From positions 1,040,586 through 1,104,585 of the forward strand of contig OZ241993.1 of the NCBI GenBank assembly GCA_965204575.1: a stretch of 64,000 bases of DNA, written 5' to 3'. Below are positions 49,286 through 50,727 of the stretch, piece after piece. The notes below the pieces were generated by a model that saw nothing but the letters and a program-made list of their open reading frames with translations, made no database searches and was not told the origin of the DNA. The stretch is from an uncultured candidatus Porisulfidus sp. (GTDB lineage: Bacteria > Pseudomonadota > Gammaproteobacteria > Poriferisulfidales > Poriferisulfidaceae). The position numbers and the translations under genes are program-made. Positions within the stretch are counted from its first letter, which is position 1; each line of letters begins with the position of its first letter.

Positions 49286-49314
49286 CTACTGAGCCTGTGT
49301 GGAAGCTCAGCCAC

Positions 49315-50727
49315 ATGCAAGAATCCCCCCCCCCCCCCTCAAACCATAACCGGCCTGAACTAGGGCCCGGCGCGGCCCGCGCGCCGGTCCTGCGCCGTCG
49401 CCGTCGCGACGGGTGGCTGCCGCCGGAGAAACGCCGTGCGCGTTCCAGGACGCGGGTGCGCCGGCAGGTGGCGGTCAACGTGCTGGGGGTGTGCTCCATG
49501 CTTTCGCACTCGGTGGCGCCGTACCTGGCGGCGGTCGCCGCGAAAAGCACCACCGCGGTCGGCGCGGTCGGCACGTTCGCCGCCCTGGCGCCCGACGAGG
49601 CGGCGGCGCAAAACCCGGGCCCGGCGGGAGCCAAGGGCGACAAGGGCGACAAGGGCCAGGTGGGCATTCCTGGACGACCGGGCGACAAGGGCGAGGAGAT
49701 GGGCGCACCCCCCGGTGAGAAGGGCGCAACAGGCGTAAAGGGCTCGCCCGGCGGAGAAGGTCAGAAGGGCGATCAGGGACGGCCGGGCAATCGAGGCAGC
49801 CGAGGCATACCGGGCGAAGAGGGGGCGAAGGGCGTGCTGGGATTCAAAGGCCTTCCGGGAGGCGCTGGCGATCAGGGCTCGAAGGGCCCGAGGGGCGATC
49901 CAGGTCCGCAGGGCTCGGCGGGTGTCAAGGGCGATACGGGCCAGAAGGGCGACCCGAAGGCGATCGGTGCCAAGGGCGATACAGGCGAGGCGGGCGCACC
50001 GGGTGCACCGGGCACGCCGGGCGCGCAGGGTTCGCAGGGCGCACAGGGCGCACAGGGCGCGCCGGGCGCACCGGGCGCATCGGGCACGCCGGGCGCCAAA
50101 GGGGAGGCAGGCGCGGGCGGCTTCGATTTTTCCGAGCAGGGGAAGGCGCGGGTCCGGGAGAAGGCCCGGGCCCTGCGGGAATCGGAGAACCCGGCCGACC
50201 AGCGGATCGGTCGGCTGCTGGAAGGCATCCTGGACGAGCTGGCGCCGGCCGCGGGGGGACAGCTGCAGTCGCTGCAGTCCGCCGGCGGGCGGGCGCTGCA
50301 GACCGAGGAGCCGGCGAGTGACAGCCTGACCCTGCTGCGGTATGCCTCCCGCTCCGACACGCCCCGGGCGGAGCAGGCCGGGGCGCTGATGGGCAGCATC
50401 TTCCTGAACCAGCGGGACATCGCCGAGAATCGCCAGAACATCGAGAAGAACCGGCAGGACATCGCCGGGCTGCGGGACGAGGACTACAGGCTGCGCAACC
50501 GCTCGCGCGAGGGGACCGCCCTGGCCATCGCGCTCGGCGGCATCCACTTCCCGCTGGACAAGGACCGGTCCGTCTCGCTGCGCTTCGGGCGCTTCGAGGG
50601 CGAGGAGGCGCTGGCGCTGGGCGCGTCCTTCCGCCTGCGGGAGAACTGGCAGATCGATTTTGGCATGGGCCGGGGGCTGAGCTACCGGCAGAACGGCTAT
50701 TCCGCCGGGCTGAGCTACAGCCGGTAG
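49315..50727 (+). CDS. Collagen-like trimeric autotransporter adhesin paralog 1 (leader, G-X-Y stalk, coiled-coil neck, YadA-type anchor)
   Basis: Arg-rich and hydrophobic leader ending [11 protein letters not shown]. About 55 G-X-Y triplets. [23 protein letters not shown] coiled coil. [11 protein letters not shown] followed by four short beta-strand-like segments ending [10 protein letters not shown]. Alternative starts are GTG 49297, GTG 49456 and ATG 49498. Confidence 0.8.
49325..49338 (+). repeat. Homopolymeric C tract, 14 nt, at the 5' end of the first collagen-like gene
   Basis: Counted directly. It lies 10 nt after the ATG at 49315, read as SPPPPS, and 118 nt before the alternative GTG start at 49456. 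Confidence 0.95.
49618..50121 (+). repeat. Collagen G-X-Y triplet region of paralog 1 (about 168 aa)
   Basis: [47 protein letters not shown] counted 14 G-X-K triplets, 15 Pro in Y against 3 in X, and two interruptions (GEEMGAPPG and GDPKAIGAK). Confidence 0.9.

Follow-up and report, generated by a model that had tools for sequence, protein, structure and literature searches.

A C14 tract at the 5' end of a collagen-like trimeric autotransporter adhesin gene as a candidate phase-variation switch

Homopolymer-driven phase variation of adhesins is textbook knowledge for vertebrate pathogens and commensals, and G/C homopolymers longer than about 8 nt are prone to slipped-strand mispairing. The C-stretch of the Bordetella fim promoter is a G/C homopolymer upstream of an adhesin gene, the length of which grades transcription. 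To our knowledge, homopolymer phase variation has hardly been documented in uncultured environmental or invertebrate-associated bacteria. Here we describe a 64-kb stretch of DNA from an uncultured candidatus Porisulfidus sp. (contig OZ241993.1; the whole stretch is called the window below), in which a run of 14 C residues (C14) lies at the 5' end of TAA1, a gene for a predicted trimeric autotransporter adhesin (TAA) with collagen repeats. The TAAs of Moraxella catarrhalis with a homopolymer in the 5' end of the open reading frame (ORF), Mid/Hag and UspA2H, or just upstream of it, UspA1, have been found experimentally to be phase variable (PMC7302503). Briefly, Mid/Hag carries a G(n) tract of 6-10 nt within the ORF near its 5' end and switches ON and OFF, UspA2H carries an A(n) tract of 9 nt within the ORF, and for UspA1 the G(n) tract precedes the ORF by 29 bp and transcription is graded (PMC7302503). 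H. pylori sabA is reported to have promoter and coding tracts at one adhesin locus, affecting both transcription and translation (PMC2715451).

We propose, with a probability of roughly 0.65, that C14 is a hypermutable repeat mediating translational ON/OFF phase variation of TAA1 by slipped-strand mispairing, nested under a second tract of 20 C residues (C20) that would act at the operon level. The class of mechanism is already known; what is unusual is the setting, the tract length, the pairing of the tracts and the collagen-mimic cargo.

The C14 tract and the reading frame of TAA1

The ATG of TAA1 occupies 49315-49317 (all positions are those of the window), and the C run begins 10 nt past ATG 49315 in the context ATGCAAGAAT-C14-TCAAACC or, read more widely, ...GGAAGCTCAGCCAC-ATG-CAAGAAT-C14-TCAAACCATAACC... 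The ORF in frame with the tract ends at 50727 and counts 470 codons from this ATG, in agreement with the position and frame given in a preliminary description of this DNA. From base composition, about 0.0017 runs of 14 or more C would be expected by chance on this strand of the 64 kb. The window contains two long runs, C14 and C20, which lie about 700 nt apart, and no other homopolymer longer than 7 nt was found in it; a G7 run lies at 55822-55828, and C6 runs occur elsewhere. The C/G ratio is maximal at the tracts, which merely reflects the tracts themselves. Neither run is part of a significant predicted RNA structure (z of -0.8 and +2.1), both being unpaired in the predicted folds, and an Rfam search at the locus returned no match.

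With the tract inside the predicted coding sequence, any gain or loss of C other than by multiples of 3 would cut TAA1 short, as the preliminary description had anticipated. We simulated different tract lengths within the flanks of the window, and only C11, C14 and C17, that is, lengths of 3n+2, gave full-length TAA1; the present C14 allele is thus ON. All other lengths ended translation after 10-17 codons. Specifically, C12, C15 and C18 yielded peptides of 10-12 aa (11 aa for one added C), and C13, C16 and C19 yielded peptides of 15-17 aa (15 aa for one lost C), owing to the stop codons listed in Table 1.

The position of the TAA1 start decides whether C14 is coding or non-coding. The product is arranged from N- to C-terminus as an Arg-rich extension, a hydrophobic signal-like segment, the collagen G-X-Y repeats and a YadA-like anchor. 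The C-terminal beta-barrel anchor that defines the YadA family was recognised at residues 422-475 (PF03895, 5.9e-08), above the curated cut-off, and a candidate signal segment, the hydrophobic stretch ending in AAAQ, precedes the collagen repeats. To examine the extension, we compared window 49315-49500 with L001:845-1000, L084:1838-1960, L083:5461-5580 and L090, the L numbers denoting related loci collected via similarity to the SecB-like protein encoded upstream of TAA1. The long frame is open in all 8 related TAAs, which represent 5 lineages, for the 34-53 codons that precede the hydrophobic segment (QVAVxxLGVCSML), and the other two frames carry stops in 7/8 and 4/8 of the sequences. The extension is Arg/Lys-rich throughout (34-53 residues) and shares the motif LRxRxRD(S/G)xW(W/L), for which L090 has the related LRRGxSW. 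When 5.8 billion proteins were searched with a profile of the N-terminal region of the TAAs, no relatives came up. The arrangement GGAAG-N9-ATG is kept in three alleles (window, L087 and L085) though the neighbouring bases differ, and motifs resembling a Shine-Dalgarno (SD) sequence precede most long-ORF ATGs of the related TAAs, being strong in TAA2 (the downstream paralog of TAA1), L001 and L083. No good SD was found before the alternative starts 49456 and 49498, and a promoter scan gave no promoter-like site near C14. The distance between the secB stop and the TAA ATG is 29 nt in the window and 26 nt in L001. Moreover, record P0053 of the source contig is the exact 470-aa product from ATG 49315, so that the depositor's gene call uses the same start. 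Collectively, these observations make ATG 49315 a well supported but not proven start of TAA1, which would place the tract in codons 4-8 (SPPPP).

Relatives of the locus differ in tract length at this site. A search with the TAA C-terminal domain gave a single match, the ortholog on the metagenome scaffold L087, which shares about 96% identity with the window across 5.7 kb (99% for the TAA1 C-terminal domain). Its orthologous site reads ATGCAAGAAT-C13-GAAAGACCATAACC, with one C fewer, an altered 3' edge, the same total length and a preserved frame; the differences between the window and L087 concentrate in two places, the 3' end of secB and the 3' border of the tract. L085 and L086, with secB at about 95% nucleotide identity, show ATGCAGGAATG-C16, and their contigs end at the tract or within 23 nt past it. 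The last 22 nt of L085 resemble the L087 sequence with many bases overcalled as C, which suggests that this contig end is sequencing noise after a long homopolymer. The preliminary description had called for such a comparison among strains and had named a homopolymer assembly artefact as grounds for abandoning the switch. Because the independent assemblies L087, L085 and L086 all carry poly-C at the same site, the tract is not an artefact of one assembly; we regard it as real, its assembled lengths being only approximate.

The locus has those properties of a contingency locus that sequence can show: a G/C repeat of about 8 nt or more, a position inside the ORF, given the predicted start, where length changes other than multiples of 3 truncate the product, and lengths that differ between strains (C14 in the window, C13 in L087 and C16 in L085/L086, as approximately assembled). 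The TAA1 product is also a predicted surface adhesin, a classic class of phase-variable gene, which we count in favor of a switch.

C20 and further poly-C tracts of the operon

The second tract of the window, C20, was missed by the preliminary description. The downstream secB-like start is 213-231 nt away, the exact figure varying with the start chosen. C20 is non-coding and lies between two promoter-like sites, of which the TTGATA-17-TAAAAT site is located just upstream of secB, about 170 nt after C20. Like a C11 tract in L084, a third lineage (SecB 74% identical), which follows an AT-rich region 47 nt upstream of the TAA ATG, C20 may be a promoter-spacer or leader switch. C14 is not placed like one, as it lies inside a conserved ORF away from any promoter-like site.

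Equivalents of C20 occur in a symbiont of the sponge Aplysina aerophoba. The L001-type lineage comes from this sponge, MKWU00000000 being an Illumina assembly of its microbiome (PMC5649159), and SRR8092709 and SRR8092756 are A. aerophoba runs (bioRxiv 10.1101/2024.01.09.574914). Its SecB is 72% identical to that of the window, and upstream of secB, TAG-poly-C is the only part at which the window and L002 can be aligned. The equivalent tract reads TAG-C14-TAG in L001, C16-ACGCCCCCTTCCG-C9 in L002/L091 and C12 in L092; thus, the symbiont assemblies have identical flanks on the secB side and different tracts. The end of L002 contains noisy C-rich sequence. Two contigs start exactly at the 3' edge of a tract, namely L095 of the A. 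aerophoba lineage and L087 at the equivalent of the window C20. Contig breaks at the tracts are suggestive only as a sign of length heterogeneity.

All these tracts are poly-C on the sense strand, and none lies farther than about 230 nt upstream or 24 nt downstream of a secB or TAA start. No long poly-C tract was seen elsewhere in the 64-kb window or in the related loci read; L088 and L089 end before the TAA and were thus outside the tract comparison. A search for shared flanks among C14, C20 and the L002 tract revealed no similarity outside the C runs, and the match of a 9-mer, CCCTCAAAC, is at chance level (E = 0.28). Shorter runs were observed at other starts. The epimerase gene of the A. 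aerophoba lineage has C8 right after its ATG (ATG-C8-GAAG, MPPPKP; L091:5009-5016, also L001, L092-L094 and L096), and the window ortholog is without this run. A T run directly before the ATG of L084-type secB varies among relatives as T5, T6 or T7 (L084:~256-260, L085:4703-4709, L086:779-785, L088:248-253 and L089:~1757-1761).

In the proposed mechanism, slipped-strand mispairing at replication would add C residues to C14 or remove them. Alleles of C11, C14 and C17 keep ATG 49315 in frame with the 470-codon ORF, and in the simulation an added C leads to TAA 49347 and a lost C to TAG 49361, so that TAA1 would be OFF. The OFF state may also lower TAA2, the oxygenase and the glycosyltransferase by polarity, because no recognisable promoter or terminator precedes them. 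C20, the equivalent of which is length-polymorphic in the sponge symbiont, probably acts on the operon as a whole, through the promoter or the leader. The two tracts together would make this a contingency locus with two levels of control over a surface adhesin. The preliminary description had held paralog 1 to be phase variable and paralog 2 to be exempt. The first part gains comparative support from the coding position of the tract and its length differences; the second is too simple, because TAA2 follows TAA1 by 37 nt without promoter or terminator in the scan and the operon lies downstream of C20. Its remarks on paralog 2 itself are correct, since TAA2 has no tract and a strong AGGAGG (50751-50756) 8 nt before ATG 50765.

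Table 1 Features of the poly-C adhesin operon, in window coordinates.
Feature	Position	Strand	Remarks
Weaker promoter-like GGGACA-16-TATACT, ends 22 nt before C20	48563..48590	+	consensus match only
Second tract TAG-C20-TAG, non-coding, between dapD (- strand) and secB-like gene	48612..48631	+	
Promoter-like TTGATA-17-TAAAAT (TG-extended)	48798..48826	+	consensus match only; conserved in L087
secB-like chaperone gene, first of the operon, 140 aa	48863..49285	+	Pfam SecB 1.2e-34; alternative GTG start 48845
SD-like GGAAG, 9 nt before ATG 49315	49301..49305	+	conserved in window, L087, L085
TAA1 coding sequence, 470 aa	49315..50727	+	Pfam Collagen 2.5e-22, YadA_anchor 5.9e-08
C14 homopolymer, predicted TAA1 codons 4-8 (S-P-P-P-P)	49325..49338	+	candidate slipped-strand switch
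Stop codon TAA	49347..49349	+	reached on +1 C or -2 C (simulation)
Stop codon TGA, second stop in the frame of TAA 49347	49356-49358	+	simulation
Stop codon TAG	49361..49363	+	reached on -1 C or +2 C (simulation)
TAA2, tract-less paralog	50765..52189	+	Collagen repeats, C-terminal YadA-like anchor
2OG-Fe(II) oxygenase gene, 199 aa	52233..52832	+	Pfam 2OG-FeII_Oxy_3; product on record
Glycosyltransferase gene, GT25 domain and PLOD-type GT domain	52816..54267	+	Pfam GT_PLOD 1.7e-57, Glyco_transf_25 2e-17

Weighing the switch against other explanations

Several points weigh against a translational switch at C14. The SD before ATG 49315 is weak (GGAAG), the frame-specific similarity advantage of the extension is small (36.5 versus 32 and 31), and a codon-position substitution test on the extension was uninformative, with 45, 46 and 51 changes for the three codon positions. 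The length that an assembly gives for a long homopolymer is approximate, and the overcalling of C at the L085 end means that part of the difference between C13, C14 and C16 could be sequencing error. Both alleles that are readable through the tract, the window and L087, are in frame, and that alone would happen by chance once in 9 cases. A clean ON/OFF outcome could also be blurred if RNA polymerase slips on a run of 14 nt. Finally, the lineages of L082/L083 and L090 have the operon without any run longer than 7 nt, so the tract is not essential to the system. These tract-less lineages, the ON state of both readable alleles and the poor conservation of the first ~25 extension residues between lineages are what one would also expect if the tract were hypermutable without being a selected switch, that is, a tolerated poly-proline by-product in a poorly constrained extension, the OFF variants of which are deleterious and purged. 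However, long poly-C occurs at three positions in at least three lineages, always on the 5' side of the same adhesin operon and nowhere else in the window or the related loci read, and such recurrence is hard to explain without selection for mutability. We consider the by-product explanation unlikely.

The preliminary description had also offered a leader or promoter role for the tract, with TAA1 translated from GTG 49456 or ATG 49498 and C14 acting through spacing or RNA effects. Non-coding tracts do exist at this locus, C20 clearly and the L084 C11 by its place upstream of the TAA ATG; the gene caller picked an internal ATG for L084, and the weak SD at ATG 49315 points the same way. Against this, the region between ATG 49315 and the later starts is conserved as protein, with an open frame in every related TAA and the common motif LRxRxRDxxWW, no promoter-like site lies around the tract in the short space behind secB, and the strong SDs of TAA2, L001 and L083 stand at long-ORF ATGs, with no good one at 49456 or 49498. 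We therefore set this proposal aside as improbable. We give slightly less credit still to the idea that the runs are junctions at which DNA has recombined or been rearranged, for example at the boundary of a cassette or at a hot spot of insertion, instead of or besides being switches. The observations behind it concern the layout of the locus. The 5' flank of L092 is entirely unlike that of L001/L002, the same organism, and the 3' flank is identical, which makes the tract the breakpoint; directly before its C12, two copies of CCTTAAGTCAATG are spaced 21 nt apart (L092:176-227). When window 48600-60454 was compared with L085, its GlnD and divergent-oxygenase segments matched window 58143-60454 and 56665-57385 in reverse orientation, so that the window, compared with L085/L084, has its secB-to-epimerase block inverted; C20 lies at the left end of this block. 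Furthermore, secB lies between C20 and C14 in the window, has a tract before it in L001 and after it in L085, and is absent between tract and TAA in L084. Nevertheless, the other end of the block has no matching tract, and the L092 breakpoint could be an insertion, a rearrangement or a mis-join, for instance a mis-join at the homopolymer or an adjacent insertion-sequence (IS) element. An invertase-type switch was also considered and is unsupported, as no inverted repeats flank the block. The junction idea leaves the in-frame maintenance of C14 unexplained. Least credible of all, in our opinion, is a sequencing or assembly artefact, e.g., poly-G from two-colour chemistry or a homopolymer miscall. 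It would account for contigs that end at tracts and for the noisy, C-rich ends of L085 and L002, but the long C run recurs at the same site in independent assemblies from different samples and pipelines, in organisms diverged by 4% or more, and in the window it is interior to a 1.8-Mb contig.

We thus prefer slipped-strand phase variation of TAA1 through C14 under operon-level C20. A wider version of this proposal, which we find rather doubtful, is that a nested two-level poly-C contingency system controls a host-mimicking adhesin operon of sponge-associated symbionts, with collagen-like TAAs, a collagen-type hydroxylase, a glycosyltransferase and a dedicated SecB. Phase variation would then serve as a stochastic strategy for life in an invertebrate without adaptive immunity, e.g., for escape from phagocytosis or phage. 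Instead of setting the spacing of a promoter, C20 might act as a poly(rC) leader that stays unpaired and, by its length, tunes Rho loading and early termination, and the tracts might double as recombination junctions that reshuffle the cassette.

The adhesin operon and its relation to known systems

The tracts belong to a conserved gene string composed of the secB-like gene, 1-3 collagen-repeat TAAs, the 2OG-Fe(II) oxygenase, the glycosyltransferase with GT25 and PLOD-type domains, and an epimerase, as read in window 48863-56055, L001, L082-L084, L087, L090 and L091. The relatives of this string come from sponge metagenomes, and wherever a related locus is readable across, a secB-like gene is present at the TAA locus or beside it. 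To the left of the operon, dapD, an ArsC-family gene and dapE lie on the opposite strand. In its content, the gene string resembles a bacterial cassette with which a collagen mimic would be produced and modified. TAA1 and TAA2 are about 98% identical for about 245 nt from 49376 and 50838 (49376-49620 and 50838-51080) and unrelated upstream, which points to gene conversion or to a strong constraint on the part that encodes the extension and the signal-like segment. The collagen regions are far more diverged than this 5' part, at about 83-84% in cross-matches between L087 and the window. They contain in-frame tandem repeats of 9, 18 and 27 nt (window 49991-50096 and 51443-51573; L082:5461-7129 and L083:5461-6963), and the near-identical long contigs L082 and L083 differ in repeat content, L082 being frameshifted inside the repeats; these differences represent either a second source of adhesin variation or long-read error. 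Elsewhere in the window, at 56544-56634, the two 17-nt arms of a perfect inverted repeat (GAGGCGAACCCTCCAGC / GCTGGAGGGTTCGCCTC) enclose a loop of 57 nt, upstream of a second 2OG oxygenase gene (56723-57349). L085 has two different secB-like copies, and an IS605-family OrfB/TnpB gene (L085:3265-4509) adjoins its locus.

The tracts cluster on one operon that seems made for the display of a collagen mimic, and this operon has its closest relatives in marine sponge microbiomes (Aplysina aerophoba). If the proposed switch is true, these bacteria would hedge their bets on the surface display of a host-like matrix protein, and the tract would be a simple marker that can be scored in existing metagenomic reads. 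It would also account for the breaking of short-read assemblies at fixed points of the locus, and gene calls and pseudogene calls there would depend on tract length.

By analogy, the Moraxella catarrhalis TAAs are the nearest counterparts of TAA1 and its C14 tract. Like Mid/Hag and UspA2H, TAA1 is a TAA with a homopolymer near the 5' end of the ORF that would shift the frame, as deduced here from the DNA itself. The tract of the window is longer, however, with 14 nt compared with 6-10 nt in Mid/Hag and 9 nt in UspA2H, and consists of sense-strand poly-C in a region of 62% G+C. Unlike in these adhesins, it is placed in an Arg-rich extension upstream of a signal-like segment, the passenger is a collagen triple-helix repeat, and the host is uncultured, with relatives from sponge metagenomes. 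C20 and the L084 C11 resemble the tracts of uspA1 and Bordetella fim as G/C homopolymers upstream of an adhesin gene, although C20 is 213-231 nt away from the start codon, in contrast to 29 bp in uspA1. The window would share with sabA the combination of two repeat tracts at one adhesin locus, acting on transcription and translation. It would differ in repeat types and protein family, in the chaperone gene that separates the two tracts, and in an upstream tract that would act on a multi-gene operon. Lastly, TAA1 combines the C-terminal YadA-like anchor of YadA-family TAAs with the G-X-Y repeats of bacterial collagen-like proteins. Unlike in either group, its collagen repeats would form the stalk of a TAA, and it belongs to a gene string that includes a dedicated secB-like gene as well as genes for a 2OG oxygenase and for a glycosyltransferase of GT25/PLOD type.

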